NCBI GenBank assembly: GCA_963743915.1
Contig: CAVURN010000005.1
Location: forward strand, 384,001 to 448,000
Origin: an uncultured Actinomycetota bacterium
GTDB lineage: Bacteria > Actinomycetota > Actinomycetes > JAHEKZ01
Direction of reading: 5' to 3'
DNA length: 64,000 nt
Shown: in pieces, positions 14,477 to 41,653 of the stretch
Numbering within the stretch: the first letter of the stretch is position 1
Layout of the letters: every line of letters begins with the position of its first letter
Position numbers and translations under genes: made by a program
Notes under the pieces: generated by a model
The model's input: the letters and a program-made list of their open reading frames with translations, nothing else
The model's database searches: none
Told to the model about the DNA's origin: nothing

Positions 14477-14497
14477 AATGATCCCTGCCTCGCCGGT

Positions 14498-16262: not shown

Positions 16263-17081
16263 CTACATTCGGCGGTCCCTCAGCACGGGAAAGTCCTCAC
16301 GCACCTGGCGCGCCAGATCGAGATCGAGTCGAGCGGTGAGTATCTCCTCATCGGAGTCAGCCTGGGCGACCACCTCGCCCGTCGGCGCGACTACTTGGCT
16401 GGACCCACCCAGCTCGACACCACAGTGGGTACCGGAACTGTTGCACTGCAGGACCCACGCCTGGTTCTCTACCGCTCGGGCTCGTCCAAGAAGCCGCCAG
16501 TGCTCCATTCGCGGCTTCGGCCACGCTGCCGGTATCAGCACTACCTCTGCGCCGCGCTCACCGAGTTTGCGAAAGAGCTCCGGGAAACGTAGGTCATAGC
16601 ACGTGGCAAGGCCGACTCGGGCAGAGCCCTCTGGACAGGCGAGGTCCGTCACTGTCAACTGGCTGCCCGCCTCCAAAATCTGTGGTTCACCCACTCCGAA
16701 GCCAAACCGGTGGATCTTGCGGTATGTCGAGTGGATCTCTCCCAACGGAGACAGCAGCACTGATGTGTTCCACAGGCCACGACCCTCGGCGCCCCTATGT
16801 GCGCCCTCGTCGGCCAACTCGATGATGGAGCCGGCATGAATCCAGCAATCCAACCTCGGGGCGAGTTCGGCGAGACGACCAATGGTGTGACCGTGGATAG
16901 ACTCGGCCGTCCTCGCCCACGAAGCCGAAGCGAAACCGCCGTGTGCCCACAGCTCGGGCAGAAGTAGCAGGTCGGGTCGGCTGATGTTCTGAATGGCAGC
17001 ACAGACCCGGTCTACTCGGTCTACCAGCGGCTCCTCGTCACCGTAGCCCACCTGGTAGAGCGTGACATCGATCCCACTCAT
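16263..17081 (-). CDS. nit: Carbon-nitrogen hydrolase, probable omega-amidase (2-ketoglutaramate amidase)
   Basis: LPELW, YRKIHRFG, ATCYDLRFPE (E-K-C triad); nicotine-cluster context. Confidence 0.82.
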   Translation of the reverse strand: MSGIDVTLYQVGYGDEEPLVDRVDRVCAAIQNISRPDLLLLPELWAHGGFASASWARTAESIHGHTIGRLAELAPRLDCWIHAGSIIELADEGAHRGAEGRGLWNTSVLLSPLGEIHSTYRKIHRFGFGVGEPQILEAGSQLTVTDLACPEGSARVGLATCYDLRFPELFRKLGERGAEVVLIPAAWPKPRMEHWRLLGRARAVENQAWVLQCNSSGTHCGVELGGSSQVVAPTGEVVAQADSDEEILTARLDLDLARQVREDFPVLRDRRM

Positions 17082-20876: not shown

Positions 20877-20898
20877 ATCAGCTCCTGAGATCTTTGCG

Positions 20899-21713: not shown

Positions 21714-22898
21714 TCAGTCCGGCGGGGGCAAGCCGAACCGGAACTCAGCCGCTCCAGGCGGAAAGGGTCCGCCATGCTGCAACACTGCGGCCATGGCGCG
21801 AACCTTTGACAAGTATGCCCGCCCAACAGCGAGGCGTTCAGGCTCCCATGCTCGGAGAGCACCCTGCACATCGCCGGATGTGGCCAAGAGGTGGTCGACC
21901 AAGCGCCAGGCGTCGGCGGCAGCCTTCGCGGCTCCCGCCGCCGCGTGGGGTCTGGGCGTGATCGCTGCGTCACCAATGAGCGCGACCCGGTCGAAGGCCA
22001 CGTTCTGAGGTTCGCAGTCGCTGATCGTGGTGACGAAGGGGTTCGGTGCGGCGCTCAGCAGGTCGCGAAATGGCGAGACCAACTCGTTGAGGGCTCGATT
22101 GCGGAAGGTGTCGAGGCTTGTCGAGCTCAGGTCTTTGAAGTGGACCGTGACGGGGCGGCGCCCACCGTCCTTCGCCGTCATGAGGCCGTCGAGTGCCTCC
22201 CCTTCCTCCACATTCCAGTACCACTGAAAATTGATCCGAGCCCTACCTGTCACTTCCCCGTCGGAGGTGACCTGACAGATGGGGTAAGCGATGATGTGCC
22301 CATCCGGCAGTAGCCCATAGGTGAAGGTGCCTTGAAAGAAGCTCCAAATGTCGTCTGAGACGTCGCTCTCGTCGACCATGCCTCGCCACGTGACATATCC
22401 AGCGTACGTGGGCGACACCCCGAGTAGTTGGGCGCGCGCAACCGAACTCCCCCCGTCAGCGCAGACCAGTAGGTCTGCACTGACCTGGGTGCCGTCGGCG
22501 AACGAGGCTGTCGGCAGTTCTCCATCGAGATCAATACCCACGAGTTCCTTGCCAAGGTGGTAGTCCTCGGTTCCGAACACATCCAGGAGTCTCCGGTAGA
22601 TGGCGTTGTATGCGGTGAAGCGCCAGTCAGAGGCCACTTCGCCTTTCTTGAGCCCGGTCGCGGCATCGTAGTAGCACATGGCGGAACTGGCGACGCTGAT
22701 TTCTTCCAAGGTCGTGGACGTGCGCTCAAGAAGGTAGCGGACAAGTTCAGGCTGCACGACGATGCCCGTTCCAAATCCCGACAGCAGTGTTGAGCAACGC
22801 TCGTAAACCGCCACATCGCATTTAGCGTCACGCAGCAGATTGGCAGCCGTTAACCCTGCAATCGACCCACCGATCACGGCGACCTTCGGCATGCCCAT
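21714..22898 (-). CDS. dhpH: 2,6-dihydroxypyridine 3-hydroxylase (FAD monooxygenase)
   Basis: LSGFGTGIVVQPELV, TYAGYVTWRG, NFQWYWNV, IGDAAITPRPHAAAG, LQHGGPF; matches the recalled Arthrobacter DHPH closely. Confidence 0.92.
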   Translation of the reverse strand: MGMPKVAVIGGSIAGLTAANLLRDAKCDVAVYERCSTLLSGFGTGIVVQPELVRYLLERTSTTLEEISVASSAMCYYDAATGLKKGEVASDWRFTAYNAIYRRLLDVFGTEDYHLGKELVGIDLDGELPTASFADGTQVSADLLVCADGGSSVARAQLLGVSPTYAGYVTWRGMVDESDVSDDIWSFFQGTFTYGLLPDGHIIAYPICQVTSDGEVTGRARINFQWYWNVEEGEALDGLMTAKDGGRRPVTVHFKDLSSTSLDTFRNRALNELVSPFRDLLSAAPNPFVTTISDCEPQNVAFDRVALIGDAAITPRPHAAAGAAKAAADAWRLVDHLLATSGDVQGALRAWEPERLAVGRAYLSKVRAMAAVLQHGGPFPPGAAEFRFGLPPPD

Positions 22899-22923: not shown

Positions 22924-23850
22924 TCAGCCGGCGTTCAGGGCCAAGGCAATGGGTCGAAGGGGTGCGCCGCTGGCGCCGCGGAGTCGAATCGGCGCCGCGA
23001 TGAGACAGAACTCATCCACACCGTCACGCGACAGTTCCTCAAGGTTGACCAGCTCGATCATGGGGACTCCGGCCTCGGCAAGGAAGTGGCAGTGGCCCGG
23101 TAGCCAATTGTCCCCATGCTGAGACGGAGCGACTTCGACACACTCCTGGTCCGCGCCGATGGCGGAAATCCCCTGGCCGGTCAGCCACTTCGCCGCCTCA
23201 AGGCCAAGCCCGGGTGGGTTCCCGAGAACCTTCGAACCATCCGGCCAGAAGCCCATCCGTCCGGTTCTGACCATGACCACGTCACCGGGCTCCAGGGCGA
23301 GGCCTGCCTTCACCAACGCATTCCTGCAGTCGTCGATCGTGATGGCGTAGGAGTCTGGTAGGCACTCCACGCCAAGGCCCTTGGCAACGTCGAGAAGCAC
23401 GCCTCTGGTGATGATGGGCGGGATGACCTCTGCACCACCCTTCGTCCAACCGCGGCTGCCGAGAGAGTCCTCCGCCGAAAATCCGTTGTAGATGTGTCCG
23501 TCCACACCAAAGTGGTTCAAGGAGTCGATGTGGGTCCCGGTATGGGTGTACATGAACACGACGTCGCCGGAGTAACAGACATGCCGATTAACCTCGCTCC
23601 CCGCACCGTTCAAGTTGTCCACGACGGTGCCGGAGGGGGTGTGGCTCATGAACAACTGGTAGCTCGGATCGCCAGCAGCCTGGAAACTGGGCATGCCGAC
23701 GAAGTAGTCGATGCTCAGGTCGTAGCTGCGCGTCCCGTCTACTCGAGCCAAGATGGCTGCCGACTTCTCGGGAGACAGATGATTGAGCGCTCCCAACTGG
23801 TCGTCAGGGCCCCAAGGGCTAGCGGCTACCTTGATGCCCGCCTTCGCCAT
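22924..23850 (-). CDS. Cyclase-family (kynurenine-formamidase fold) metallohydrolase, Pkc/HpoH-like
   Basis: WGPDDQLGALN, HTGTHIDSLNH, RGVLLDVA, GASGAPLRPIA; adjacent to dhpH. Confidence 0.85.
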   Translation of the reverse strand: MAKAGIKVAASPWGPDDQLGALNHLSPEKSAAILARVDGTRSYDLSIDYFVGMPSFQAAGDPSYQLFMSHTPSGTVVDNLNGAGSEVNRHVCYSGDVVFMYTHTGTHIDSLNHFGVDGHIYNGFSAEDSLGSRGWTKGGAEVIPPIITRGVLLDVAKGLGVECLPDSYAITIDDCRNALVKAGLALEPGDVVMVRTGRMGFWPDGSKVLGNPPGLGLEAAKWLTGQGISAIGADQECVEVAPSQHGDNWLPGHCHFLAEAGVPMIELVNLEELSRDGVDEFCLIAAPIRLRGASGAPLRPIALALNAG

Positions 23851-24149
23851 CAGACGTCCGTGCGCTGGAAGTCGACCACCGCGCGTGCCGAAAAGCGCGG
23901 CAGGAGCCGCTCGACGACATCGAGGTGGAAGGGGTCGTTCGAGTAGGCGTCCAGGTCCTCCCACGAGTCGAAATCCGTGATCAGGACGCCGTCGAACGGT
24001 TCGCCGTTCTCTCCTGGATCGCCCTGGTGGCTCCCCAGCTCCCAATGCTTGATCACCGGCATGGCTGTCGGCAGTGTGTTGAGAATCTCGATGATCTCCT
24101 CGTTGCTGTGCCCCTCGGCGACTTTCCATGAGAAGACATGCCGAATCAT
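23850..24149 (-). CDS. Dabb-family dimeric alpha/beta barrel protein
   Basis: MIRHVFSWK...FDSWEDLDAYSNDPFH...AVVDF. Confidence 0.85.
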   Translation of the reverse strand: MIRHVFSWKVAEGHSNEEIIEILNTLPTAMPVIKHWELGSHQGDPGENGEPFDGVLITDFDSWEDLDAYSNDPFHLDVVERLLPRFSARAVVDFQRTDV

Positions 24150-24242
24150 GCTGCTCTCCTAACGCTCGGTGTCGTGCGACTGCACTGCGTCAGTCTCGGA
24201 GAGAGCGCCCAGGAGCGGCTCTGCATACTCCGATAAGAACGG

Positions 24243-24294: not shown

Positions 24295-25515
24295 CTAACG
24301 CCCGTCCTCGCCGGAGTCTGTCCCTTCGTCTGCCGCAGGTTCAGTCCCGTCATCCAGAATTTCGGCAAGCCGAAGAGCCACCGCGAGCTCGTCTCGGCGG
24401 CTGGCGATGGGGAAGCCCAACCGCTGCTCGATAGACCTCAGTCGGTAGGCAACGGTTCTCTCATGGATCTGAATACGGGCGGCGGTGGCTGCGGCGTTCT
24501 GCCCTGTGTCAAAGTATGCCCGCAACGTCTCGCGGAGAAGCTTCGTGCGAGCGTCGTTGACGCCGACGGCACCCAACTCGCCGATCATGAAATCACGTGC
24601 GGCTGGCACGTCCTGCAAGATGAGGCTCTCGAGGGCGACATCACGATAGGTGGTCACTGGCCGGCGACAGAGTTTCCCGACCCGGAAGGCCTGCCAGGCC
24701 TGCCGATGTCCGAGGCGAAAACCCTCCAACCCAAGGGCCGGGCCACCGAGTGCGAGATACGTGCCCGGAGGCGCCTGAATGGATGACCGATGATTCTCGA
24801 AGCTGGCCTCCAGGCGACTGCTGCCCAGCCATGCCAGCGAAGTACCACCAGGACCTTCTACAACGAGCAGCGAAGCATCGAGGAGCTTCGCCATTGCTTG
24901 TAGCGCCGTGCGGGCACTGGCACCCCATGCGACCACAGCAAGGTGCTGGAGTCGAAGGTTGTACCCCAACTGCTCGGTGTCCGTTGGCACACCGCTGAGC
25001 AGGTCTGTGACGATGGCTCGACGCTGGCGGTCACGACTGTGGAAGAAGTATTCCGACTTCTCTCGTTCGTAGGTCACCACGACGTCGTGCGTGATCCGGT
25101 CGTTCCATGCGAAGTGGTACCCCGCCGCCTGCTTGAGAACGGCGATCTGACGTGGGCCGTCAGGTACCACACGCACCGTTGTCTCGAGAATCCAGTTCCA
25201 CAGAACGACCTGACCGATTCGCCGCGTCAACAGCAAGTCGGTGAGTTCGACCCCCGCCTGAGCAGCAACCCTCGCCTCTTCAAGTGCCCCTTCGGGTGCG
25301 CCTTCGGGCAGGTGACGGGCGTGGCGGAGGCCGTGGATGATGCTGGTCAGTGCCCCAGTGATGCTGGGTAGCTCTGCCTCTAACAGCATCGGGTCGTTCC
25401 GACGATAGTAGTTGGGAGCTCCTGCGCGACTGCGTTCTTGAATTTCCACGCTGATGACCGACACATCGCCTGCAAGCGCGTCAGCCACCGCCCGTAGGTC
25501 TTGCTCGATCGACAT
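24295..25515 (-). CDS. PucR/CdaR-family transcriptional regulator
   Basis: C-terminal TLRAYFDTGQNAAATAARIQIHERTVAYRLRSIEQRLG HTH. Confidence 0.9.
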   Translation of the reverse strand: MSIEQDLRAVADALAGDVSVISVEIQERSRAGAPNYYRRNDPMLLEAELPSITGALTSIIHGLRHARHLPEGAPEGALEEARVAAQAGVELTDLLLTRRIGQVVLWNWILETTVRVVPDGPRQIAVLKQAAGYHFAWNDRITHDVVVTYEREKSEYFFHSRDRQRRAIVTDLLSGVPTDTEQLGYNLRLQHLAVVAWGASARTALQAMAKLLDASLLVVEGPGGTSLAWLGSSRLEASFENHRSSIQAPPGTYLALGGPALGLEGFRLGHRQAWQAFRVGKLCRRPVTTYRDVALESLILQDVPAARDFMIGELGAVGVNDARTKLLRETLRAYFDTGQNAAATAARIQIHERTVAYRLRSIEQRLGFPIASRRDELAVALRLAEILDDGTEPAADEGTDSGEDGR

Positions 25516-25607
25516 CACGGCAGTGTAGTCCCCGATAGAGGCCGCCAGCAGCGCAACAGGGAAGGACGTAGCCCTCGTCCGGGCTACGTCCTTCCCACAA
25601 GCGGGGG

Positions 25608-26774
25608 TCAGGAGACGCCCCAAACCTCCTTGTAGATGGACTGGTAGTCAAGGCTGGTTTCCCACTGTGTGCCCTCGGGAGGCAGGCCATTCTCGCCATC
25701 GAAGACGGCCACCCCCACACCCGAGGGCACTGTCTCCTCACCCGCAAGGAGACGGTTGACCATGTCGGCAGCAGCCCAGGTTTCGATGCCGGCGTCGTAG
25801 CCGAACCCGGCATCCTGGCCCTCGTTCTTGTGGATCAGGTCGACGTTAGCCGGGAACCCGCTGCCAGCGACCACCTCAAGTGAGTCATTGCGGCCAGATG
25901 ACATCACCGCGGCTGCTCCACCTGTCGTCATCAGGTCGTCGTAGGAGACCGAAATCCCATTGGCATCTGGGTTGCGCAGGAGTGCAGTCTCGAACTTCTG
26001 CTGCAGTGGAGGACCGAACTCCGCGGTCTTGACCTCAACGGTCTCCACCGGGCACGTCGGACACATCTCCTCCATCTTCGCCTGGAAACCGTCGCTGATG
26101 GCCTTCGTGATGATCAGTTCAGGAACGCTGAACTCGATGATATTGGCCTCCTCGCCGAGCCGTGAGAGAAGCCATACTGCTTGGGACGCGCCCAGGGCCT
26201 CCGCCCACTCCACGAAGTTGCCTTCCTGAAACTCCAGCGTACGCGCGAAGTACGACTCGGAGTTCGGATCCACGTCGCTGCAGTCGGCAGCCTCCTGAGA
26301 GACCACGGGGATCCCAGCCTGCTTGGCCTCCTCCAACGCGTTCTTCACCAGCGGGCAGTCGATCGAGAAGAGCCAGATGACATCGGCGTTGCTGGCGATA
26401 GCCCGCCGGATGCCCTCCTGGTACGCCGCTGGCTCGTACTTGCCGTCGTAGATGGACAGGTCCCAACCAAGCAGCTCAGCAACCTCCGTGGCCGCCTCGG
26501 CCTGCTTGGTGCCGGTTGGCGATTGCACTCCTGAGTTCACGATGGCCACACGCGCATCGGGTTGAGCGGCAGGCCCGCTGTCCGGGGGCAAGGCAAACGT
26601 CCCATCGCCAAACAACGCTTCGAGCTCCGTTGTCGCCTGCTCGGAGACCGCGTCGTCCGAGCCGGTCTGGGTGCCTTCGCCAGACTCGGTGCTGCACGCG
26701 GCAGCGGTGAGCACCGCGGCAAGCACCGCAGCGACGCCAAGCAGGCGTCTAGGACTTCTCATGAAGGGATGCAT
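25608..26774 (-). CDS. Sugar-type ABC substrate-binding lipoprotein
   Basis: Signal peptide with LTAAAC lipobox; Peripla_BP-like LLGWDLSIYDG, AKQAGIPVV. Confidence 0.88.
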   Translation of the reverse strand: MHPFMRSPRRLLGVAAVLAAVLTAAACSTESGEGTQTGSDDAVSEQATTELEALFGDGTFALPPDSGPAAQPDARVAIVNSGVQSPTGTKQAEAATEVAELLGWDLSIYDGKYEPAAYQEGIRRAIASNADVIWLFSIDCPLVKNALEEAKQAGIPVVSQEAADCSDVDPNSESYFARTLEFQEGNFVEWAEALGASQAVWLLSRLGEEANIIEFSVPELIITKAISDGFQAKMEEMCPTCPVETVEVKTAEFGPPLQQKFETALLRNPDANGISVSYDDLMTTGGAAAVMSSGRNDSLEVVAGSGFPANVDLIHKNEGQDAGFGYDAGIETWAAADMVNRLLAGEETVPSGVGVAVFDGENGLPPEGTQWETSLDYQSIYKEVWGVS

Positions 26775-27125
26775 GTTCTTCCTCTTTCGGTGCTGGCTGC
26801 TCGGGACAATTGCCGTGCGGGTCGAAGCGATGAAGGCTGGGTAAGTCGAAAGCCATCAGCATCGGCCCCAACTACCGCAACCCCAACTCCGTTCACCGTG
26901 GGTTGTCCTCTCCGTCAAGTTGGCGTCATCCTGTCGGGCCAGGCCGGACACTTCGTTGCGGTTTCGGACGATCTAGGGCAGGGCCCTATCACCTTCCAAC
27001 AAAAACCAGGCGCGGCACGGCTTTTTGTCACGTAGGCCAGTCGATCCACACCGATCATCACCAGGACCTCACGGGTCACGGTCCCCGTCGGTGAAGAGTC
27101 TCAGACGCACAGGTGCCGCAGGCCA

Positions 27126-29246
27126 TCAAGGCGCTGCAGTCACGGTGATTCCCTCGAGGTCAAGGCGAAGGGGCTCCCGCTTGTAGGGAAGCGCAACTGC
27201 CGGATCCGGTGAATCAAACTCGCGCGCCAACCGGTGGCCGTCGAACATCGCCTCGGCCATCGCGCGCGGAGAGGAGGCGTCGCCGACGCAGTAGACGCCA
27301 CGGATACCCGACTCAGACAAGCTTTTGCGGTCACTGACAAGCGCGTTGTACATCTCGTCCACAGGCACGCGCATCGTCACCAAGACAAGTGCCCCGGTCT
27401 CCACCCGGAATGATTCCCCATGTGCCCCGAGCCCGACGAGGTGTCTACGGTGTGCCGCAGTCAAGGTGACCTCGCGATACATGGCGACCCGGCTACGGTG
27501 GAGTGTCGTCCGAATCGCATTCCCCTCCAGCGTCAAGTCCGCCTCGGGCGCAACCTGCGCATGCGGTGTGACAAGAGCGACTTCGTACCCCTCGTCGGCA
27601 AGGAGCTGCGCAAGGCCGGCGCCCATGTAGTAGCCCTCGGTGTCGTATACCGTGACGTGGGTCCCCTCGGTAGGACGTCGGGCCTCCGCCATCAGTTGCT
27701 CAGGCGTGAATACCCAGTCGCCCCCTTCATCAATCCCTGGCAAGGACGCGTGTGTCCCGGGTGATGCTCCACTACGCAGCCAGCGTGCGCCTGTGGCCAC
27801 GACCACGTGCGAAGCGCCATAGTCAAGAACGTCGGTGGCATCCAACCTGGTCGACGGGATGTAGGCCAGGTTGGGGAGCTTGTCGATCTGGATCTGCCGA
27901 TGGTCGATGAACCGAGCCCACTCCCGCATGCCCGACAACTCAGCGACCGGTCGAAGGTGCCCGCCGAGCTGCTCTGCGGCGTCGACGAGGTGCACTCTCT
28001 CCGCCCCTCGTTTGGCCAGACCGATCGCTGCCTCCATGCCCGCCGGACCTGCTCCCACTATCAAGACACTGACCTCAGGATCAGCTAGGGGTTCGAAGCG
28101 CTCCGGGTGCCACCCGCGCCTGAACTCCTCCCCCGCGGTGGGGTTCTGAGCACAGGCGAGGTTGCCCCGGTCGAGGCTACTGATGCAGTAGTTGATCCCC
28201 GTGCATTCGCGGATGTCCTCGGTGCGACCCTCCTGGACCTTCTTCGGAAAGAAGGGGTCCGCGATGGACTGACGAGCGCTGCCGACGAGGTCTATCAGTC
28301 CGGATCGCACAGCCTGCGCCATGAGATCGGGGTTGGTCAGTCGTGACACTCCCACCACGGGCTTCGTGGCGGCCCGACGGACTCGTCCGATGAGCTCCAG
28401 GTTGTGGCCTTCAGGCCAGATCCGGGAGGGACTGATGTCGGTCTCCATGTCCAAGTGGGCGCCGAAGTTCAGGTCCCAGAGGTCGACCAGCGAGTCCCCC
28501 ATCCCGACAAGGGCCACAGTGTCCTCCACACTGTGTCCCCATGGGCCCTGGGTCTCCACCGCCAACCGTGTCGCGATGGCGCACTCGCCACCAACGGCCT
28601 CGCGCACCCGGCTGAGCGTCTCGAGCCAAAACCTCGCTCGATTCTCTAGCGTCCCGCCATACCTGTCGCTGCGCTGGTTGTGGAAGGGCGAGAGGAACTG
28701 GGCGAACAGGTAGCCATAACCCGCGAGCACTTCCACGATGTCGTAGCCGACTTCGCGAGCGCGCACTGCGGCGCCCACGAAGGCCCGCTGCACACGCTCG
28801 ATGTCGTCCAGGGTCATGATCTTCGGTGTCTCCGGCGGATACCACGGAGGGTGTCGTTCCGATGACAGGCCAGAGGCAGAGAGTGCGGGTTCACGTGAAT
28901 GCCGACGCAGCGACTGAACGCCGCCGTGGTGAAGCTCGATGCAGGCCAGCGCACCATGAGCGTGGACAGAATCCACCATCAACGTGTGACGAGAGGCGTC
29001 CTCCTCGTCCCAGAGATCGCTCGAATACCATGGCCACTCATCGCTGCTGGGGCCGACGCTGGAGAACTCTGTCGACACGGCCGCCCACCCGCCCTCCGCA
29101 CGAGCAGCCCGGTAAGCAGCCCAGGTGGCCGGACGGAAGGTTCCAAAGGCGGTGCCGTGGGGCACGTTGTAGAACCGATTGCGAAGGGTTTTGGGGCCGA
29201 CGACGACCGAATCGAAGAGGATCTTGTGATTGTCGGCTATCGGCAC
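27126..29246 (-). CDS. TMADH/histamine-dehydrogenase-family flavoprotein (OYE barrel, Fe-S, ADP domain), copy B
   Basis: LRNRFYNVPH, AEGGW, RSDRYGGTLENRARF, IRECTGINYC..CAQNPTAGEE, IVGAGPAGME. Confidence 0.9.
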   Translation of the reverse strand: MPIADNHKILFDSVVVGPKTLRNRFYNVPHGTAFGTFRPATWAAYRAARAEGGWAAVSTEFSSVGPSSDEWPWYSSDLWDEEDASRHTLMVDSVHAHGALACIELHHGGVQSLRRHSREPALSASGLSSERHPPWYPPETPKIMTLDDIERVQRAFVGAAVRAREVGYDIVEVLAGYGYLFAQFLSPFHNQRSDRYGGTLENRARFWLETLSRVREAVGGECAIATRLAVETQGPWGHSVEDTVALVGMGDSLVDLWDLNFGAHLDMETDISPSRIWPEGHNLELIGRVRRAATKPVVGVSRLTNPDLMAQAVRSGLIDLVGSARQSIADPFFPKKVQEGRTEDIRECTGINYCISSLDRGNLACAQNPTAGEEFRRGWHPERFEPLADPEVSVLIVGAGPAGMEAAIGLAKRGAERVHLVDAAEQLGGHLRPVAELSGMREWARFIDHRQIQIDKLPNLAYIPSTRLDATDVLDYGASHVVVATGARWLRSGASPGTHASLPGIDEGGDWVFTPEQLMAEARRPTEGTHVTVYDTEGYYMGAGLAQLLADEGYEVALVTPHAQVAPEADLTLEGNAIRTTLHRSRVAMYREVTLTAAHRRHLVGLGAHGESFRVETGALVLVTMRVPVDEMYNALVSDRKSLSESGIRGVYCVGDASSPRAMAEAMFDGHRLAREFDSPDPAVALPYKREPLRLDLEGITVTAAP

Positions 29247-29334
29247 GAAGGGACCATCCTTGGTCAGGTCGGTTTGGCGGCCAGCGCGTGGCAGTCGTGG
29301 AACTCGGCCCTGGGCGTCGGCGCAGGTTCGGCGA

Positions 29335-31509
29335 TCACCTCGTCGGAGCCATCCTGCTTGTCTTCGATACTGGCGTGATTGGCAGTTTGCCAACCAGTTC
29401 GTCGTCGTAGTCCTCCTCGCGCCACCCAAGGATTCGGTGCTCTCGAATGAATGGCAGTGGGGTGGCGGGATCCGCCTCATCAATCTCCCTGGCGAGGCGG
29501 TGTCCCTCGAAAACCGCCTCGGCAATCACGCGCGGCTCAACGCAGTCACCGATGCGGAAGACATCAATTCCGTCCTCCCCGGGCCGCTGGTCATGGCTTG
29601 TCAACGCCTCATACAACCCGCTCCGCGAACGACGCTGCGTGACGAGGACAACGGCATCTGCTTGCCAGTCCGCTGTCTTGCCGGCGTGGTATGTGTGATG
29701 TCCGGTGACCAGACCCGGCCGGAGGGATGTCACAAGGTGGCTTGGGACTACCTCGATGCCCAGTTTCAGCAGACCGTGCATCACACGCTCACCCTCGTCG
29801 GTGAAGAACAGGTACGATCCGACTTGGTCGGCCGGGCAGACCAGCGTGACCTTCTTTCCTTCCAAGGCCAGCTTCTCGGCGATGCTGGATCCCATGAAAT
29901 AGCCGTCGCAGTCGTAGACGACGACGGATTCCCCGAGAATCGGCCGTTCCTCAACCATGAGGGATTCGGGCGTGTACACCATGGCTGCGTGTTCTTCGAC
30001 CCCGTTGATCGGCGCGTGGGTGATCGGGTTCATGCCTGTCGCATCCCATTCGGAGCCGGTCGCGACCACAACGATCTGTGCCCCGTAATCCAAGACCTCC
30101 TCGGCGGTGATGGGGTGGTCGGTCAAGACCGTGACGCCAGGAAGCTTGGCGAGCTGAGCCTCGCGGTACTCCACGACGCGCCGCCACGTACGGAGTCCGG
30201 GCAACTCGGAAACCCAGTTGACATGGCCACCGACCTCGGCGGCCCTGTCGACGAGGTGAACTTGTTCAAACCCGCGCTCGCCCAGGACCCGGGCGCACTC
30301 CATACCAGCGGGGCCGGCCCCCACGATAAGTACTGGCTCCTCAGACCTGGCGGACGGATTGAATCGCTCCGGATGCCAGCCGCGGCGATACTCCTCGCCA
30401 ACCGTCGCATTTTGGGTGCACACGATCCGGCCGCCCCCGTTGTTGAACCGGGAAACGCAGATATTGCAGCCTATGCACTCGCGGATATCCTCAGCGCGGC
30501 CTTCCAGGATCTTTGTCGGAATGAAGGGGTCTGCGATGGCGGGACGCGCCGCAGAGATGATGTCGATGACGCCATCACTCACCGCCTGCGCCATCAGTTG
30601 CGGGTCGGTGAACCGGCCAACAGCGGTGATGGGTTTCTTGGCATAGGGCCGGACCTGCTCGATGTAGTCCCGCTGCCAGAATGGCTGGAAGAATCGGGAC
30701 GAACTGCAGTCGTCCGACATGTGTCCGACCTGCATGTCCCACAGGTCAACGAGGTCATCGAGAAGCTCGACAACAGCAATTCCATCCTCATTGACCTTGA
30801 ACGCCTCTTCTGACTCATCGGTGAATGAGTCAAGACAGAAGCCAGCCACAATCGCACAGTCGTCGCCGACGGCCGCACGCACCTGCTCGACCGTTTCACG
30901 CCAGAATCTGACGCGATTCTCGATGGAACCACCGTACTCATCCGTGCGCTGGTTCCAGTAGCGCCAGAGGAATTGCAGCGGCAACGAGAACCCCGCGCGG
31001 GCGGAGATCTGAACGAGATCAAATCCGACGTTGCGTGCGCGGATGGCGGCGTCGACGTATGCCTTCTGAATCCGACGGATATCCTGCTTATCCATGGCGT
31101 AGCACGAGTGGCCGGACAATGGACTCGTCACCTGGGAAGGCCCGCCGGCTGGGAGACGGGTCCCAAATCCGCTGTGGTCCGGTCCCATGTAGACCAGCTG
31201 AACGCCTGCCAAGGCCCCGAACTCATGGACCCGGTCCACCATGAGTTGCAGATTGGCCTCGTCGCGACGATCAATCAATCGAGCCTGAACCCATGGCGCA
31301 TCATCACTCTCCGCGTCGACAGCGCAGTACTCGGTGTTGACGGCGGCCCAGCCACCTTCTGCACGCAGGCCCCGCAGATAGGCCTGGGCCCCGGGGTGGT
31401 CCACTCCGAGCCCGGAACAGTGAGGCGAAACGTAGAAACGATTGCGGAAAGTCTTCGGCCCAACCCGGATGGGCTCAAAGAGGGGCAGGTGACTCGGGTC
31501 GGTTGTCAT
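29335..31509 (-). CDS. TMADH/histamine-dehydrogenase-family flavoprotein, copy A
   Basis: FRNRFYVSPHC, AEGGWAAVNTEYC, RTDEYGGSIENR, IRECIGCNIC..CTQNATVGEEYRRGWHPE. Confidence 0.92.
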   Translation of the reverse strand: MTTDPSHLPLFEPIRVGPKTFRNRFYVSPHCSGLGVDHPGAQAYLRGLRAEGGWAAVNTEYCAVDAESDDAPWVQARLIDRRDEANLQLMVDRVHEFGALAGVQLVYMGPDHSGFGTRLPAGGPSQVTSPLSGHSCYAMDKQDIRRIQKAYVDAAIRARNVGFDLVQISARAGFSLPLQFLWRYWNQRTDEYGGSIENRVRFWRETVEQVRAAVGDDCAIVAGFCLDSFTDESEEAFKVNEDGIAVVELLDDLVDLWDMQVGHMSDDCSSSRFFQPFWQRDYIEQVRPYAKKPITAVGRFTDPQLMAQAVSDGVIDIISAARPAIADPFIPTKILEGRAEDIRECIGCNICVSRFNNGGGRIVCTQNATVGEEYRRGWHPERFNPSARSEEPVLIVGAGPAGMECARVLGERGFEQVHLVDRAAEVGGHVNWVSELPGLRTWRRVVEYREAQLAKLPGVTVLTDHPITAEEVLDYGAQIVVVATGSEWDATGMNPITHAPINGVEEHAAMVYTPESLMVEERPILGESVVVYDCDGYFMGSSIAEKLALEGKKVTLVCPADQVGSYLFFTDEGERVMHGLLKLGIEVVPSHLVTSLRPGLVTGHHTYHAGKTADWQADAVVLVTQRRSRSGLYEALTSHDQRPGEDGIDVFRIGDCVEPRVIAEAVFEGHRLAREIDEADPATPLPFIREHRILGWREEDYDDELVGKLPITPVSKTSRMAPTR

Positions 31510-31651
31510 GGCCCTCAACCTAGCCATGCCCATCAGGTGCTTCCTTTCATGAGGTGCCGAATCTGACCCTGACAATTTGCGGATCTGCACTAGCAAGAAA
31601 TCGTCCGCGGTGATCCCACCTCAGGTGAGCGGGCTCAGGGATCAGCGAGGG

Positions 31652-32110
31652 TTATCCACGTTCATCGCCCATTGCCCATTCATAGCTCATCTGGACGAGT
31701 TGCCACACGACCTCGAGTTCAGCGCGATCCCGTGGACCGTAGACGAGAAAGGAGTCCTGAACTGGATGCGGTACGCCCCACCCGCCTCGGAGAGCGGCAT
31801 TTACTGCAGACCGAGGCAATGAAAGGTGGAGGCTGCCGTCGTGATGCGGATGCAAGTGCGCAAACTCTCGGCCCTTCTGAAAGCGTGCGGCAGGAGCTCG
31901 GCCGAACCCGTCGGCCAGGTGGAGGGCGCGAGCGTGCGACACGGAGACCAGCGTGGGAGCCATGTAGGTGAAGGGCAGGGAGCGCATCCTGAGCCACAGC
32001 TCTTCCTGCAGCATCACCGGAGCGATCTGCGACCGCTGTGCGTGCGGAGAAGACCCGATGACTTGCGGTGCCGGGCCGGTACGCATGGGGAACTCGCCGG
32101 ACGCGTCCAT
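31652..32110 (-). CDS. DUF5519 / luciferase-like domain protein
   Basis: PHAQRSQ, REFAHLHPHHDGSLHLSLP, GWGVPHP, VYGPRDRAELEVV. Confidence 0.75.
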   Translation of the reverse strand: MDASGEFPMRTGPAPQVIGSSPHAQRSQIAPVMLQEELWLRMRSLPFTYMAPTLVSVSHARALHLADGFGRAPAARFQKGREFAHLHPHHDGSLHLSLPRSAVNAALRGGWGVPHPVQDSFLVYGPRDRAELEVVWQLVQMSYEWAMGDERG

Positions 32111-32117
32111 GAGCCGC

Positions 32118-32726
32118 TCACCCACGACGAAGCCTTTGGGCGATGTCGATGACCCTCTCGGCGAGATGCGTGAGGGCTTCGGTCTGCGTGGCTTCCAGCG
32201 GATGGGGATCGGAAGTGCCGGTGACATGAGACACGCCATAGGGGTTTCCATCAACGAACTTCAGCGGTGCGGTGTATCCGGGTGGAACCAAGACACCTCC
32301 AAAGTGGTACACACTGTTGTACAGCGCAAGCAGTGTTGACTCTTGACCCCCGTGGGCCGTCTGACTCGAGGTGAACCCGGCGTACGCCTTGTCCGCTAAC
32401 TCGCCGCGCACCCAAGGCTGGCCCAAGGTGTCGAGGAACTGCTTCAACGGTCCGGCCACATTGCCGAACCGGGCCGGGGTTCCCAGGAGAACGCCATGCG
32501 CCCAAACGAGGTCATGGTGCGTAGCGACCTCGACATGTGTCGTAGCCTCGGAGTGCTCAACCCAGGCCGGGTTCTTTGCGATCGCCTCGCTCGGCGCCAA
32601 CTCTGCGGCCCGGCGCAATCGAACTTCAGCACCCGACGAACGTGCAGCATCCGCCAGGACCTGTGCCATGGCGTGAAGCGTGCCGGTTGCCGAGTAGTAA
32701 ACGATGGCCATCCTCGTTGACGACAT
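32118..32726 (-). CDS. wrbA: WrbA-type NAD(P)H:quinone oxidoreductase
   Basis: YYSATG, GTPARFGNV, SQTAHGGQESTL, GNPYGVS. Confidence 0.9.
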   Translation of the reverse strand: MSSTRMAIVYYSATGTLHAMAQVLADAARSSGAEVRLRRAAELAPSEAIAKNPAWVEHSEATTHVEVATHHDLVWAHGVLLGTPARFGNVAGPLKQFLDTLGQPWVRGELADKAYAGFTSSQTAHGGQESTLLALYNSVYHFGGVLVPPGYTAPLKFVDGNPYGVSHVTGTSDPHPLEATQTEALTHLAERVIDIAQRLRRG

Positions 32727-32859
32727 CTCCCTAGCCTTCTATCCACGGGGTAAGCAGTGTCGTCAAATCGTCGATGAACACCGGCTCAGGAGCATGCTGC
32801 TGATCGGTAGAAGTTGAGGTCCCGGTCTACTACACCTGCACACTTGCACCGCTGGACTT

Positions 32860-33981
32860 TCAGGCCCGGGCAAGCAGCTCCACCAAGTCCGAGAATGCGG
32901 CCAAAGAGTGTCCGGCGACGAAGTCGTCGACGTGCGGAAGGACGGCCCTCACCCCCCCTTGCACCGGCGCGTAACCCACCTTGCCGCGATGAGGATTGAC
33001 CCAGACCAAGCGGTGGGTCAGCCGATGAAGCCGAGCTATTTGCATTGCCAGCAAGGTGAGGTCACCGGTTTCCCACCCGTCACTGAACACCACGACCACG
33101 GCGCCGCGGGCCATGCCTCGCTGCCCCCAGTGATCCAAGAACGCCTTGATGTCATCACCCAATCGAGTACCACCAGCCCAATCGGGGACTGCCTGCCCAG
33201 CCGCCACCAGTGCCGCCTCCGGGTCATGAATCCGAAGCTCTCGTGTCAGGCGTGTAAGCCGGGTGCCGAGGGTAAAGACCTCGACATCTCCCCCCCTGCT
33301 GGCCGTCATGATCCGGTGAGACAGACGCAGGAGCGCATCGGCATAGCTGCTCATCGAGCCCGACACGTCGACGAGCAGTATTACCCGCCGAGGACGTGTC
33401 CCCCGCCGGCGCCACTCGACCGGCCCGGGTTCACCCATGCGGCGGAGCATCGTCCGCAGCGTGCGATGTGCATCCACCTCTCCCCGCCGCCACGTGATTC
33501 GGCGGTGCGTGAGTCGGCGCGGGGCGACCGGCTGCAACGTAGCCATCTGCGCGGCGAGTTCCGCCCTCTGCGATTCATTCAGCTCACCAACGTCACGATG
33601 CCGAAGAACCTCCGTGGCACTTGCCCTACCGGCAATCGGTTCGGCGTCGGGATCGGCGGCCGCGCAACCGTCTTCGTCCGGCAACAGCGAGGGAACGGGC
33701 TCATCGAACATGACCGGCTGCTCCGAGTCTTGCGGCCCTTCGCCGACTCGGAACCAGACGTCGAAGACCTGGTCGTAGCGAGCAAGGTCGCTGGGGCAGG
33801 TGCAAAGCGTCGCACGCCCTGCCCAGTACGTGGTCAGTCGGTCGGAGACACCGAGCAAAGCGACTGCCTCAAGCCACGCGCGAGACCGATCGACGGTGAC
33901 CGGCACCCCGGCGGCGCGCAATGCGCGAGCAAAGCCAAGCAGAAACTCGTCAGGCTGATGTTCGAAGTCCAGTGAGGTCAT
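32860..33981 (-). CDS. coxE: CoxE-like VWA-domain protein
   Basis: DVSGSMS (MIDAS), GGTRLG, FSDGWE, WVNPH. Confidence 0.9.
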   Translation of the reverse strand: MTSLDFEHQPDEFLLGFARALRAAGVPVTVDRSRAWLEAVALLGVSDRLTTYWAGRATLCTCPSDLARYDQVFDVWFRVGEGPQDSEQPVMFDEPVPSLLPDEDGCAAADPDAEPIAGRASATEVLRHRDVGELNESQRAELAAQMATLQPVAPRRLTHRRITWRRGEVDAHRTLRTMLRRMGEPGPVEWRRRGTRPRRVILLVDVSGSMSSYADALLRLSHRIMTASRGGDVEVFTLGTRLTRLTRELRIHDPEAALVAAGQAVPDWAGGTRLGDDIKAFLDHWGQRGMARGAVVVVFSDGWETGDLTLLAMQIARLHRLTHRLVWVNPHRGKVGYAPVQGGVRAVLPHVDDFVAGHSLAAFSDLVELLARA

Positions 33982-34865: not shown

Positions 34866-34875
34866 GCATTCCACG

Positions 34876-35436
34876 CTACAAGGTGGGGTGATCATCCGGC
34901 ATCGGCATGTCGACGTCGGTACCGGTGGCCAAGTCGAAACACTCCACCATTTCCACGGCATGAATTGCCAGATACCTGCGGGCGCCGCGGTCGCCCTCCG
35001 CCCTCTTGGCTACCTCCTTCCAGTGATCTCGGCCGATAAGTACTGGATGGCCGGGCACCCCCAAGTAGGACGCTCGTCGGAGGGTGCCAGTCGTCACCGT
35101 CCCAGTGAGCACCCGTCGAACGACGTCCGCTCCAACGTCAGGCAAGTCGACCAAAGACACCAGCGCCGCGTCGGCCGATTCCGGCAGCGCGGCCAACCCG
35201 GCCCGCAGCGAAGCACCGATCCCCTCGGCCCAGTCCAAGGCCACGATCTCCTCGACGTCAGCATCAAGGAGCAAACGCGCCTCGTCGGCCGCTGCCCCGA
35301 GTACAACGCTGACCGCGCCGCAGCCGCCGTCCCGCAGAGCGTCGATCGACCGAACCAGCCACTGGTCTACCAGCGCCTTTGGTCGACCCATTCGCCTTCC
35401 TGCCCCTGCCGCCAGGAGGAGGCCGTGGACGCACAT
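34876..35436 (-). CDS. mocA: Molybdenum cofactor cytidylyltransferase (MocA-like)
   Basis: LLAAGAGRRMGRPKAL, LVDLP, GHPVLIG, GDRGAR, DVD; lies next to MCD-dependent hydroxylase genes. Confidence 0.82.
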   Translation of the reverse strand: MCVHGLLLAAGAGRRMGRPKALVDQWLVRSIDALRDGGCGAVSVVLGAAADEARLLLDADVEEIVALDWAEGIGASLRAGLAALPESADAALVSLVDLPDVGADVVRRVLTGTVTTGTLRRASYLGVPGHPVLIGRDHWKEVAKRAEGDRGARRYLAIHAVEMVECFDLATGTDVDMPMPDDHPTL

Positions 35437-38875: not shown

Positions 38876-40244
38876 TGTATTACTCCGGCTGATACGTGAC
38901 ATTTCGGCTTCGGCTGATCGCGTGACAGTGTTTCGGTTGATGGGTTACAGCTGCTTCGGTTGATTGGTGACACTCCCTGGATGAGGGAGATCAGTGTGGC
39001 TGAGCAGAGGTATCAGGCGGTTCTGGCGGTGCTTGCCGATGGCGAGACGGTGACCGATGTGGCGGCCCGGTTCGGGGTCTCGCGGAAGACCGCTTCATGG
39101 CTGGTTGCGCGAGGTACGAGGCCGGCGGGATGGAGGAGCTGGGGGATCGGTCGCATCGGCCGCGGTCGTGTCCGCATCAGATGTCGGCGGATGTGGAGGT
39201 GATGGTCGCGCGGTTGCGGCGGGCGCATCCGTCGTGGGGTCCGCGGCGGTTGGTGTTCGAGTTGGCCAAGGCGGGGGGTGGACCCGGTGCCGAGTGAGTC
39301 GGGGGTGTATCGGGCGCTGTCGCGGCTGAGACCTGGTTGATCCGGACGCGCGGCGGCCGCGGGAGCGGAAGTGGAAGCGGTGGGAGCGGGGCTCAGCCGA
39401 TGGAGTTGTGGCAGATGGATGTGGTGGGTGGGTTCGTGCTCGCTGATGGGCGGCGGGTCAAGGCGTTGACCGGGGTCGATGACCATTCCCGGTTCTGCGT
39501 GTCGGCGTTCTTGATGGTGCGGGAGTCCTCCAGCGCGTCTGTGAGCGGTCTGACGTTGGCGCTGCGGACCTATGGGGTTCCCGGGCAGGTACTGACCGAC
39601 AACGGGAAGGTCTTCACCGGGCGGTTCAACAGACCGCCGGTGGAGGTGCTGTTCGACCGGGTGCTGCGGGAGAACGGGATCGAGCATCTGCTGACCCAGC
39701 CCCGGTCCCCGACCACGACGGGGAAGGTGGAGCGGTTCCACCGGGCGATCCGGACCGAGTTCCGCACCGACCGGGTGTTCGCTGACCTTGGCGCCGCGCA
39801 GGCAGAGCTGGACGCCTGGGTGGAGCAGTACAACCATCAGCGACCGCACCAGGCCCTGCAGATGGCCACCCCCGCGTCACAGTTCCTCAACGCCCCCGCT
39901 TCGGTGGCTCCCCTGCGCCCGGTGCTGACCCGGGGCAGGCCGGACGCTGCCCGCGGCGACGGTGACTGGGTGGCCCGCCGGGCGTCCGCAGTGGGCGTTG
40001 TCACGGTGAACTGGCAACAGGTATGCCTGGGGATCGCAGCCGCCGGACGGAACATCGATGTCTGGGTCACCGACCAGGTCCTGCAGTTCTACGACGGCGA
40101 CACCCTGCTGCGAACAGAGAAACGGAGCACTCCTGGACCAGTCCGAAAGAAGCGGGCGTCGATCCCCGGCGGCCGCGAGACACTACGAGCGAGTGGAACC
40201 AATCAACCGACCTAGAACTGTCACCCATCACCCGAAGGTCAACA
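38876..40244 (+). mobile_element. IS481-family insertion sequence, copy 1
   Basis: TGT...ACA ends; repeated subterminal CGG(C/T)TGAT..GTGACA boxes; flanked by GGGCACCGTGGTTT direct repeats. Confidence 0.88.
38981..40215 (+). CDS. IS481-family DDE transposase (frameshifted)
   Basis: MREISVAEQRYQAV, ELWQMD, DDHSRF, LTDNGKVF, GKVERFH, YNHQRPHQAL. Confidence 0.9.
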
Positions 40245-40259
40245 GGGCACCGTGGTTTT

Positions 40260-41653
40260 TGTGTGGTCTCGGTTGAGTGGTGACGTTTCCTGCTCGCCTG
40301 AGGCTTGACGGTGTCTCGGCTGATGGTTGACACCGTCTCGGTTGATTCTTGACACCTGTTGGTTGCTGTCGTCGTCTCGTCGTAGGTCGAGGCGGAGGGA
40401 GCCCGATGGTGCTTCGGGAGCTGAGCGTGGCTGAGCAGCGGTATCAAGCGATTCTGGCGGTGATCGAGGATGGTCTGTCGGTCACGGAGGTGGCCGGCAA
40501 GGTGGGGGTGAGCCGGCAGACGCTGCATGCGTGGTTGGCGCGGTATGCGGCTGAGGGGCTGGAGGGTCTGGGTGATCGTTCGCATCGGCCGCGGTCGTGC
40601 CCGCATCAGATGGATCCGACGGTAGAAGTACGGATCACCGAGCTTCGAGCGTTGCATCCGGGGTGGGGGGCGGACCGGTTGGCGTATCGGCTGGGTCGGG
40701 AGGGGTTCGACCCGGTGCCGAGCCGGGCGGCGATCTCGCGGGCGTTGGTGCGGCTGGGGCTGGTCAACCATGACCGCCGCAAGGGGAAGCGGGAGTACCG
40801 CAGGTGGCAGCGGTCGCGGCCGATGGAGCTGTGGCAGATGGACGTGATGGGGGCGGTGATGCTCGCCGACGGCACCGAGCTGAAGGCGGTGACCGCGATC
40901 GATGACTGTTCCCGGTTCGCGTTGGCCGCGCGGTCTGGTGCGGCGGGCCTCCTCCCGTCCGGTTTGTGGGGTGTTCAGTCAGATCCTGACGCAGTTCGGG
41001 GCACCGGAGGAGGTGCTGACCGACAACGGGAAGGTGTTCACCGGCCGGTACTCGCTGCGCCCGATCGAGGTGCTGTTCGACCGGATCTGCCGGGAGAACG
41101 GCATCACCCATCGGCTGACCGCACCCCGGTCACCGACCACGACCGGCAAGATCGAACGGTTCCATGGCACCTTCCGACGCGAGCTGCTCAACGGGCGGGT
41201 GTTCGACTCGATCGCCGACGCCCAGCAGCAGGTCGATGCCTGGCTGGTGGAGTACAACACCGACCGTCCCCACGCCTCCTTGCAGCGGCGGACCCCGGCG
41301 GAGGTGTTCAACGGTCGCGACCCCGATGCCGGCCCACCGGTCAAGGTTGACCAGGTCCTGGTCCGCCGCGACGGTGACGGCTGGATCAGCCGTCGGGTCG
41401 CCTCCAACGGGATCATCTCCGTCGCCTGGCAGCAGATCAGCTGCGGCAAGTACCGCGCCGGCGAGATCGTCGACGTCCATCTCCGTGACGGCCTGGTCGA
41501 GATCTGGTCCGGCAACGACCTGATCCGCACCGTCGTCCGCGACAACGAAAGGAGCGTCCGCAAGAAGCGGGCCAGCAAACCCGCCCAAACATAGACTCAA
41601 GGCGTCAAGGATCACCCGAGCAGAAACCGTCAAGCATCAGGTGAGACCCGACA
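40260..41653 (+). mobile_element. IS481-family insertion sequence, copy 2 (diverged from copy 1)
   Basis: TGT...ACA ends; GTCTCGG(C/T)TGA..TGAC subterminal repeats, inverted at the right end. Confidence 0.88.
40406..41594 (+). CDS. IS481-family DDE transposase (one frameshift)
   Basis: LRELSVAEQRYQAI, ELWQMD, IDDCSRF, LTDNGKVF, GKIERFH, YNTDRPHASL. Confidence 0.9.

Follow-up and report, generated by a model that had tools for sequence, protein, structure and literature searches.

In a 64,000-nucleotide stretch from an uncultured Actinomycetota bacterium (positions 384,001 to 448,000 of contig CAVURN010000005.1; the whole stretch is called the window below), two adjacent genes encode flavoproteins of the trimethylamine dehydrogenase (TMADH) family and stand among genes of nicotine catabolism (nic genes). 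The two genes, here called copy A and copy B, are co-oriented and separated by a gap of 88 nucleotides:

29335..31533, minus strand: copy A, TMADH-family flavoprotein of 732 amino acids (P0003); PF00724 at 232 bits, 1djn at 644 bits
27126..29246, minus strand: copy B, TMADH-family flavoprotein of 706 amino acids (P0004); PF00724 at 235 bits, 1djq at 569.5 bits

Both reading frames are open and intact, as had been claimed in an earlier sequence-only reading of this DNA. The probable start of copy A is the ATG at 31533, which has a ribosome-binding site, gaaaggaag, ahead of it; the end coordinate given earlier, 31509, adjoins an in-frame ATG further into the gene. For copy B, there is no ATG in frame beyond the stop of copy A at 29335. 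The GTG at 29246, preceded by AAGGA, fits as its start, and the resulting N-terminus agrees with the N-termini of the orthologues. A scan of positions 26500–33000 for promoters and terminators yielded nothing above chance.

Both copies contain the OYE-type flavin mononucleotide (FMN) barrel, PF00724, and C-terminal domains of the dinucleotide-binding type (Pyr_redox_2, NAD_binding_8, and PF22620). They align near full length to TMADH (1djn) and to histamine dehydrogenase (3k30), in agreement with the family layout of ∼700 amino acids. The best solved relative of both is TMADH, with 644 bits for A and 568 bits for B. The scores of histamine dehydrogenase (3k30, 6de6) are 498–504 bits for A and 467–479 bits for B, and those of chain 6l6j, 468 and 411 bits, respectively. 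With neither copy did any NCBIfam model pass its cut-off; the highest-scoring one, mycofact_OYE_2, had 350–373 bits versus 793. By homology, then, A and B are members of the TMADH family, as had been proposed, and the predicted chemistry of their active sites is not TMADH-like.

The TMADH of Methylophilus methylotrophus W3A1 (1djn, 2tmd, 1o94) has the same three-domain layout; features of the family are the FMN barrel, the Fe-S cluster, and a vestigial ADP-binding domain. According to the HMMER alignments to 1djn and 1djq, copy A keeps Cys30, the cysteine that binds FMN covalently, and all four cysteine ligands of the cluster (CxxCxxC...C); its motifs are SPHC, QISARAGFSLPLQF, and CIGCNIC...C. 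However, Tyr169 is replaced by Ser, Ala171 by Arg, and His172 by Ala, with a one-residue insertion in addition. Copy A also lacks Arg222, having Gly there (AIVAGF versus AIATRF in TMADH), and a three-residue deletion takes out Trp264 of the aromatic bowl. Two of the three bowl positions are retained, one as Tyr60 and the other with Phe replacing Trp355. In copy B, the motifs are VPHG, EVLAGYGYLFAQF, and CTGINYC...C, and also LAGYGY. Here Cys30 is replaced by Gly, Tyr60 by Phe, Tyr169 by Leu, His172 by Tyr, Trp264 by Met (Trp in the orthologues), the second cluster ligand Cys348 by Ile, and Trp355 by Leu, while Arg222 is kept. Both copies retain Asp267 and the glycine motif of the ADP site, and both have Arg at the position of TMADH Tyr442. 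Hence, at the sites of the Tyr169-His172-Asp267 triad and Arg222, copy A has Ser, Ala, Asp, and Gly (with Arg at 171), and copy B has Leu, Tyr, Asp, and Arg. Every one of the cofactor motifs listed in the sequence-only reading is present, and they are conserved in the orthologues.

The search with copy A revealed a clade of 11 representatives at 74–82% identity from Nocardioides sp. WV_118_6, Nocardioides YIM B13467, Flexivirga endophytica, Rhodococcus sp. ACS1, and metagenomes, all of which keep Q[IV][AS]AR[AE][GS]FSLPLQF and the four cysteines. Below this clade, there were two matches at 62–63%, and the remainder were at most 57% identical. Copy A has unique departures in 12 out of 415 otherwise invariant columns, the range in its clade being 1–16. 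The search with copy B produced 20 further cluster representatives at 69–81% identity, from Leekyejoonella antrihumi, several Nocardioides, and metagenome contigs; beyond them the identity falls to 59% and then to ∼50–55%. All 20 keep PHG or a near equivalent, VLAGYGYL, and C-x-G-I-N-x-C...C. As the orthologues keep the motifs (11 out of 11 for A and 20 out of 20 for B), the substitutions are not read errors, and we rejected both sequencing error and pseudogene status for the two copies.

The identity between A and B is 45% (310 of 695 aligned residues). We constructed a maximum-likelihood tree of 74 sequences, which comprised copies A and B, the members of their two clades, one in every six or seven of the other listed matches, and one of the organism's own paralogues. 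In this tree, A and B belong to separate deep subfamilies, and the B clade, in which copy B is the earliest-branching member, sits on a long, fully supported stem within a group characterized by three cluster cysteines. The genes had been described as a tandem; they are indeed adjacent and co-oriented but are not duplicates of each other, and we rejected tandem duplication given the identity of 45% and the placement in separate subfamilies.

The arginine substitutions in copy A follow a strict pattern. Among 240 aligned sequences (A, B, and the complete set of 238 listed matches), Arg171 without Arg or Lys at position 222 was found in 21 sequences, and Arg or Lys at position 222 without Arg171 in the other 219; no sequence had both and none had neither. 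The 21 sequences are P0003, P0126–P0142, P0202, P0215, and P0224, and those included in the tree group together around the A clade. The swap was probably one event inherited by related proteins rather than 21 independent ones. This suggests that in the A lineage the arginine at flavin N1 was relocated from Arg222 in strand 6 to Arg171 in the 169–172 loop.

The loss of the second cluster cysteine in copy B is shared with many relatives. The relative lists comprise 119 proteins for each copy and are biased to their own query, so that the following numbers are not family-wide frequencies. The second cysteine is missing in 82 of the 119 listed relatives of B, where it is replaced by Ile (46 proteins), Ser (24), Asn (7), Val (3), Met (1), or Thr (1), which gives the pattern C-x-G-[ISNVMT]-N-x-C among P0006–P0124. 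More than half of these proteins (51 of 82) carry the canonical PHC and Tyr169/His172. Among the 119 listed relatives of A, by contrast, 112 have four cysteines, five lack the second one, and two fall outside the pattern. A paralogue from the core genome of the same organism (C1:291385-293436) is also a three-cysteine protein, with CTGSNVC and PHA. The three remaining cysteines of B are invariant in all 34 aligned sequences, which argues that the Fe-S cluster is retained. Loss of the second cysteine of CxxCxxC is the classical signature of [3Fe-4S] sites of the ferredoxin type. As regards the suggestion that the cluster of B is altered, the three invariant cysteines fit a retained, three-cysteine-ligated cluster, and a [3Fe-4S] cluster is plausible, but as a trait of the whole subgroup and not of copy B alone. 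We know of no characterized member of the three-cysteine group.

Chain 6l6j, whose PDB title names only a domain and which we take to be the Pseudomonas geniculata enzyme of the review cited below as PMC7688666, has PHA at the Cys30 position, similar to PHG in copy B, and keeps Tyr169/His172 and all four cysteines. The covalent-FMN cysteine is therefore not universal in the family, and, judging from the alignments, neither the putative non-covalent binding of FMN nor the three-cysteine site is unique to copy B. In a review, the solved Pno-type enzyme is described as binding FMN non-covalently (PMC7688666). According to the same review, Pno of Agrobacterium tumefaciens S33 belongs to this family, acts in nicotine catabolism with non-covalent FMN, and passes electrons to EtfAB (PMC7688666). 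Pno functions in the hybrid (VPP) pathway, with a cluster of hno, ald, hsh, and etfAB, whereas the window has Kdh, DHPONH, and DHPH of the pyridine pathway and no etf genes. We rejected orthology of A or B to Pno, since 6l6j scores below both TMADH and histamine dehydrogenase for each copy. Histamine dehydrogenase (3k30, 6de6), a member of the same family with the same fold, shares with A and B the Arg at the Tyr442 position, but it keeps Cys30, Tyr169/His172, and the four cysteines, has a different pocket, and has no link to nic clusters.

The genomic setting of A and B is a nicotine cluster, as opposed to the methylotrophy cluster of TMADH. We read it from Pfam and NCBIfam scans of the open reading frames (ORFs) of the window and from tblastn comparison with two stretches of plasmid pAO1. 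The genes of the island other than A and B are, from left to right:

2808-4260, plus strand: broken DAO-family FAD (flavin adenine dinucleotide) oxidoreductase with several frame changes and stops, at the left edge of the island
4285-5420, plus strand: broken XdhC maturation factor with two in-frame stops and a middle part that looks out of frame; 47% to that of pAO1
7687-8199, minus strand: KdhS; 62% to pAO1
8196-9098, minus strand: KdhM; 43% to pAO1
9332-10411, minus strand: ABC permease
10408-12147, minus strand: sugar-type ABC ATPase
12122-14554, minus strand: KdhL (ketone dehydrogenase, KDH); 62% to pAO1
14713-15780, plus strand: DHPONH (2,6-dihydroxypseudooxynicotine hydrolase); 53% to the hydrolase of pAO1-type plasmids
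15835-16188, plus strand: cupin; 49% to pAO1
16263..17081, minus strand: carbon-nitrogen hydrolase of the omega-amidase type; 45% to the CN hydrolase of pAO1
17078-19507, minus strand: NdhL; 62% to pAO1
19504-20022, minus strand: NdhS; 59% to pAO1
20019-20957, minus strand: NdhM (nicotine dehydrogenase, NDH); 46% to pAO1
20899-21630, minus strand: CoxG-like gene; 57% to pAO1
21714..22898, minus strand: DHPH (2,6-dihydroxypyridine 3-monooxygenase) orthologue; 53% over 390 amino acids to pAO1 dhpH, NF005566 at 413 bits versus a cut-off of 333
22924..24152 (a range shared with the Dabb-family gene), minus strand: cyclase-family gene; 75% to pAO1
23865-24152, minus strand: Dabb-family gene, preceding the cyclase gene; 62% to pAO1
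24295..25623, minus strand: PucR-type transcription regulator; 36% to HTH (helix-turn-helix) regulators of pAO1, 76% in the related loci
25608..26774, minus strand: periplasmic solute-binding protein (Peripla_BP_4), downstream of B; 64% in L033, L034, and L053, the related loci described below
31652..32110, minus strand: PF17648 "luciferase domain" protein of ∼152 amino acids from the ATG at 32110, directly upstream of A; 68 bits
32118..32726, minus strand: WrbA-like NAD(P)H:quinone oxidoreductase or flavodoxin-fold protein; FMN_red, NF002999 at 138 bits versus a cut-off of 141
32860-33981, minus strand: CoxE-like VWA gene; 46% to pAO1
33981-34961, minus strand: MoxR ATPase; 56% to pAO1
34876-35436, minus strand: MobA/NboR-like gene; 38% to pAO1
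35505-37973, minus strand: MABO-like DAO-GcvT fusion; 40% to pAO1
39337..41594, plus strand: rve transposase/integrase genes (Pfam), the right border of the island

Eighteen genes of the window match nic genes of pAO1 at 36–75% identity. In particular, orthologues of NdhLSM, KdhLMS, DHPONH, and DHPH occur together, as in pAO1-type pyridine-pathway clusters. The match of DHPONH is specific, in that nic plasmids of Arthrobacter and Paenarthrobacter provide the ten best plasmid hits, at 53% identity, and the next one is at 33%. By gene content, the setting is a nicotine pyridine-pathway island of the pAO1/Nocardioides type, which agrees with the nicotine cluster proposed earlier. The order around A and B is WrbA-like – PF17648 – A – B – solute-binding protein, all on one strand. 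In the stretches of pAO1 that we searched, the PF17648 gene lacks a counterpart; its family otherwise consists of uncharacterized, mostly actinobacterial proteins. Copy B has no plasmid relative above 43% identity among 2,507 matching records.

The island spans ∼2.8–41.6 kb and has 61–64% G+C, compared with 66–70% to its right. We also sampled 400 further genomes of the class, of which 13 belong to the same genus, and found no B orthologue in any of them; 12 of the 401 genomes (the window's own included) match B at E ≤ 1e-200, and all matches but B itself are at most 50% identical. DHPONH occurs in one of the 401, the window's own genome. As the orthologues of B and DHPONH are missing from these 400 genomes, we consider the island to have been acquired horizontally. 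The broken XdhC, if real, would mean that the maturation of NDH and KDH needs another XdhC; an assembly error is also possible. To the right of the island, at 52764-59354, the window contains a molybdopterin oxidoreductase that seems to be divided between overlapping ORFs, with Molybdop_Fe4S4 at 54335-55603 and Molydop_binding at 52764-54572. Its neighbors are a DsrE-family gene, an ORF of the 4Fe-4S dicluster/NrfD-like kind, and a fusion of rhodanese and metallo-beta-lactamase. The group is similar to a sulfur-compound reductase cluster and is possibly frameshifted.

The genome is small (2.9 Mb in five contigs, 90% complete). In C1, C2, C3, and C5, it has at least four further loci similar to MABO or dimethylglycine dehydrogenase (38–43% to pAO1 MABO) and at least four further TMADH-family loci, one of which, C5:356664-358682, contains a stop close to the 5′ terminus. 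Judging by these genes, the organism looks specialized in methylated amines.

One step of the pathway has no gene in this island, the oxidation of 6-hydroxynicotine, which in pAO1 is catalyzed by 6-hydroxy-L-nicotine oxidase (6HLNO) and 6-hydroxy-D-nicotine oxidase (6HDNO). These enzymes have folds unrelated to those of A and B (the flavin amine oxidase and VAO families, respectively), carry FAD, and are O2-dependent oxidases, as opposed to Fe-S dehydrogenases. With pAO1 6HLNO as a tblastn query, we found no match at E ≤ 1e-8 in the whole 2.9-Mb assembly, and a looser search returned only Rossmann-motif matches; the window has no 6HLNO remnant either. The pAO1 6HDNO query matched the assembly only over its FAD-binding domain (residues 34–231 of the 478-amino-acid ORF), and no orthologue was found. 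The only other flavin amine oxidase noticed, C1:339402-340535 (44% to pAO1 MAO), has native composition and sits among genes for propionyl-CoA carboxylase, an amidase, and a mutase; given these core metabolic surroundings, we rejected it as a nic-linked gene. If the pathway runs in this genome, A or B must carry the 6-hydroxynicotine step.

In order to compare the setting with that of the relatives, we scanned metagenomes with the B-clade alignment, which yielded 27 loci; in six, the identity of B is 66–70%. The window proteins were mapped on these six loci, and selected queries then on all 26 loci (L034 and L035 are the same and were counted once) as well as on L020 from Leekyejoonella. Three loci, L033 and L053, which are much alike, and L034, have nic synteny, with NdhM, CoxG, DHPH, the cyclase, PucR, and the solute-binding protein on one strand. 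Next comes a flavin amine oxidase of 437 amino acids, an orthologue of 6HLNO (56% to that of pAO1), and then, on the opposite strand, a PF17648 gene directly before B. The B orthologues in these loci are at 68–70% identity (that of L053 is split over two frames), and the PF17648 orthologues directly upstream, L033:9059-9511, L053:9056-9508, and L034:8798-9205, at 59–74%. A DAO-family gene follows B in L033, L053, and L036, and L053 has an aldehyde dehydrogenase 8 kb downstream of B. The genes after B in L034 are, in order, those for a Rieske oxygenase, the reductase of this oxygenase, an HbpS-like protein, an A orthologue (76%), and a second PucR regulator, A being on the strand opposite to B and 5 kb away. 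L033 and L053 have B without A within the stretch examined. A separate observation concerns L034:12907-16823 (minus strand), where the A orthologue heads a run with the HbpS-like protein, the Rieske oxygenase alpha subunit, and the ferredoxin-NAD reductase; this set resembles N-demethylase systems. A scan of genome contigs for the context of A and B found one locus only.

In Leekyejoonella antrihumi, the B orthologue is at 81% (G401:C24:105524-107608). The DAO gene directly upstream of it, L020:8432-9937, is the intact counterpart of the broken DAO gene of the window, with 51% identity over the broken reading and 63% over the first 214 amino acids. IS110 and IS21 elements flank the pair of DAO and B, and the 16 kb examined there contain no nic gene. 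The Leekyejoonella genome has no A orthologue, as the best match to A, at 45%, is at the place of B itself, and none of 101 sampled genomes of its family has one. The closest DHPONH orthologues (72–78%) come from Leekyejoonella, a Nocardioides, and Flexivirga endophytica, and these species also hold orthologues of B (the first two) or A (the third). The DHPONH contigs of the Nocardioides (4,985,871 bp) and of Flexivirga (1,093,871 bp) are equal in length to those with the B orthologue P0025 and the A orthologue P0132, respectively, which speaks for co-occurrence. The orthologues are associated with nic clusters, as L033, L034, and L053 show for B and L034 for A, and one of the refuting conditions named in the sequence-only reading therefore does not apply. 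By synteny, B regularly accompanies the PF17648 gene in nic clusters of the Nocardioides type, of which it is a standing part; A is added only occasionally. Where the related clusters have 6HLNO, the window has an empty slot. Still, because B, and in L034 also A, coexists with 6HLNO, neither copy can be called a 6HLNO replacement on comparative grounds.

Our tentative explanation, which we prefer to those discussed below, is that A and B are amine dehydrogenases of the nicotine pathway that are independent of each other, A acting on 6-hydroxynicotine and B on another amine, and both passing electrons to a flavoprotein acceptor. They would have been recruited from different subfamilies into a horizontally acquired nic island of the pAO1/Nocardioides type. 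At the FMN of each copy, a C-N bond in an amine derived from nicotine would be oxidized, with single electrons passing through the Fe-S cluster to a flavoprotein and not to O2. The candidate acceptors are EtfAB of the genome (C1:110395-111598) and the WrbA-like protein encoded just upstream; the electron-transfer flavoprotein (ETF) would be consistent with family precedent (PMC7688666). Copy A is predicted to convert 6-hydroxynicotine to 6-hydroxy-N-methylmyosmine, the smaller residues at 169 and 172 and the loss of Trp264 opening the pocket and possibly leaving room for a pyridyl-pyrrolidine. We favor A for this step since it keeps the covalent-FMN cysteine, the four cluster cysteines, and two bowl positions, and its pocket appears opened. 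Copy B would have non-covalent FMN and a three-cysteine cluster, possibly [3Fe-4S], and candidate substrates are gamma-N-methylaminobutyrate, a pseudooxynicotine, or the D-enantiomer. Another amine is more likely for B because it stands in nic clusters that also encode 6HLNO. A role as 6-hydroxynicotine dehydrogenase, suggested for both copies in the sequence-only reading, thus is a fair hypothesis mainly for A, given that 6HLNO and 6HDNO are missing from the assembly, although both copies coexist with 6HLNO in L034.

Several observations weigh against this explanation. Tyr169, His172, Arg222, and Trp264 are all important in TMADH, and copy A has none of them, so that amine oxidation by A is itself an assumption. 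The copy B of the window is alone in having Met at the Trp264 position, which is Trp in all 20 other members of its clade, and its unique departures (12 of 311 otherwise invariant columns) are the maximum of the clade, the others having 0–11; as B branches earliest in its clade, this count is not proof of decay. The 6HLNO orthologue is present along with B in L033 and L053 and with both copies in L034. At 90% completeness, 6HLNO could sit in unassembled DNA, and the core-genome amine oxidase at C1 might serve instead. The island has no etf genes, and the WrbA-like gene was not found in the related metagenome loci mapped. The DAO and XdhC genes are broken, by decay or by assembly errors, and the pathway may be incomplete rather than rewired. 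Finally, we know of no enzyme activity for any member of the A or B clades.

A less probable but real possibility is that both enzymes act in the lower, side-chain pathway by Pno-like oxidation of secondary methylamines, converting gamma-N-methylaminobutyrate to methylamine and succinate semialdehyde or acting on a (di)hydroxypseudooxynicotine; the 6-hydroxynicotine step then would be missing or performed by an unrelated oxidase. The coexistence of A and B with a 6HLNO orthologue in related clusters fits this, as do the DAO-family amine oxidoreductase after B in L033, L036, and L053, the aldehyde dehydrogenase of L053, and the richness of the genome in methylamine-type enzymes (at least four MABO/dimethylglycine dehydrogenase-like and four further TMADH-family loci). 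In addition, the review gives a CH3-NH-(CH2)3-CO- substrate for Pno (PMC7688666). However, the island already has a MABO-like gene, A and B are nearer to TMADH than to the Pno-type 6l6j, and the conserved set of NDH, KDH, DHPONH, and DHPH would be left without an enzyme joining NDH to KDH. Quite unlikely, in our estimate, is that A and B are passengers on a mobile island, either decaying genes or small-amine dehydrogenases (of the trimethylamine, dimethylamine, or histamine type) unrelated to nicotine. The island is indeed bounded by transposases and holds pseudogenes, the Leekyejoonella B is in a small IS110/IS21 cassette with no nic gene nearby in the 16 kb examined, and the window's B has its unique Trp264 to Met replacement. 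Yet the nic synteny recurs on separate metagenome contigs, the closest DHPONH orthologues come from species that have an orthologue of A or B as well, and the residues of the substrate pocket are unlike those of TMADH and histamine dehydrogenase. Both ORFs are intact, the departures of A are within its clade range, and those of B, though the highest in its clade, may fit an earliest-branching member.

We deem it very unlikely that A and B form an enantiomer pair for (S)- and (R)-6-hydroxynicotine, replacing 6HLNO and 6HDNO, as the sequence-only reading had offered. Both oxidases are missing from the assembly, the island has exactly two unassigned amine dehydrogenases, and B could be a stand-in for 6HDNO in those Nocardioides-type clusters that retain 6HLNO; but there is no specific evidence of stereo-specialization, the phyletic patterns of A and B differ, so that they are not a fixed pair, and (R)-nicotine is rare in nature. 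An obligate A/B heterodimer with B as a catalytically degenerate partner, also raised earlier, is harder still to credit. It would agree with the adjacency, common orientation, and short gap of the genes, with the two chains in each of the solved TMADH and histamine dehydrogenase entries, and with the loss of Cys30 and one cluster ligand in B. However, Leekyejoonella has B at 81% identity and no A, the two genes are on opposite strands 5 kb apart in L034, L033 and L053 have B without A in the stretch examined, and the changed residues of B are strictly conserved, as expected of an active enzyme.

In the literature searched, from which subscription papers, including the work on Nocardioides JS614, were mostly beyond reach, TMADH-family enzymes of nicotine catabolism appeared only as Pno. 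To our knowledge, the pyridine pathway is regarded as enzymatically complete from pAO1. By sequence comparison, A and B are uncharacterized variants, with candidate functions, in a pathway and an enzyme family that are both known. A wider reading, which we consider unlikely, is that the B clade and the three-cysteine group around it would be the first in the TMADH family with a [3Fe-4S] or three-cysteine cluster and non-covalent FMN; that B and the PF17648 protein would form an undescribed module of the actinobacterial nicotine pathway; that 6-hydroxynicotine dehydrogenases with a relocated arginine would make up the A clade; and that the ring-opening step of the pyridine pathway would be respiratory, via ETF or quinone, and would not produce H2O2.

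A conserved, uncharacterized TMADH-type gene, B, thus belongs to the Nocardioides-type nic cluster, and A is found in some versions of the cluster, including this island without a 6-hydroxynicotine oxidase. For flavoenzymology, the two lineages provide two natural experiments, a large subgroup without the second cluster cysteine and a lineage with an apparently displaced flavin-N1 arginine. If A or B is a dehydrogenase of 6-hydroxynicotine or methylaminobutyrate, it would make an O2-independent, energy-conserving variant of the pathway, and would also be a new biocatalyst for nicotine-derived pyridines.

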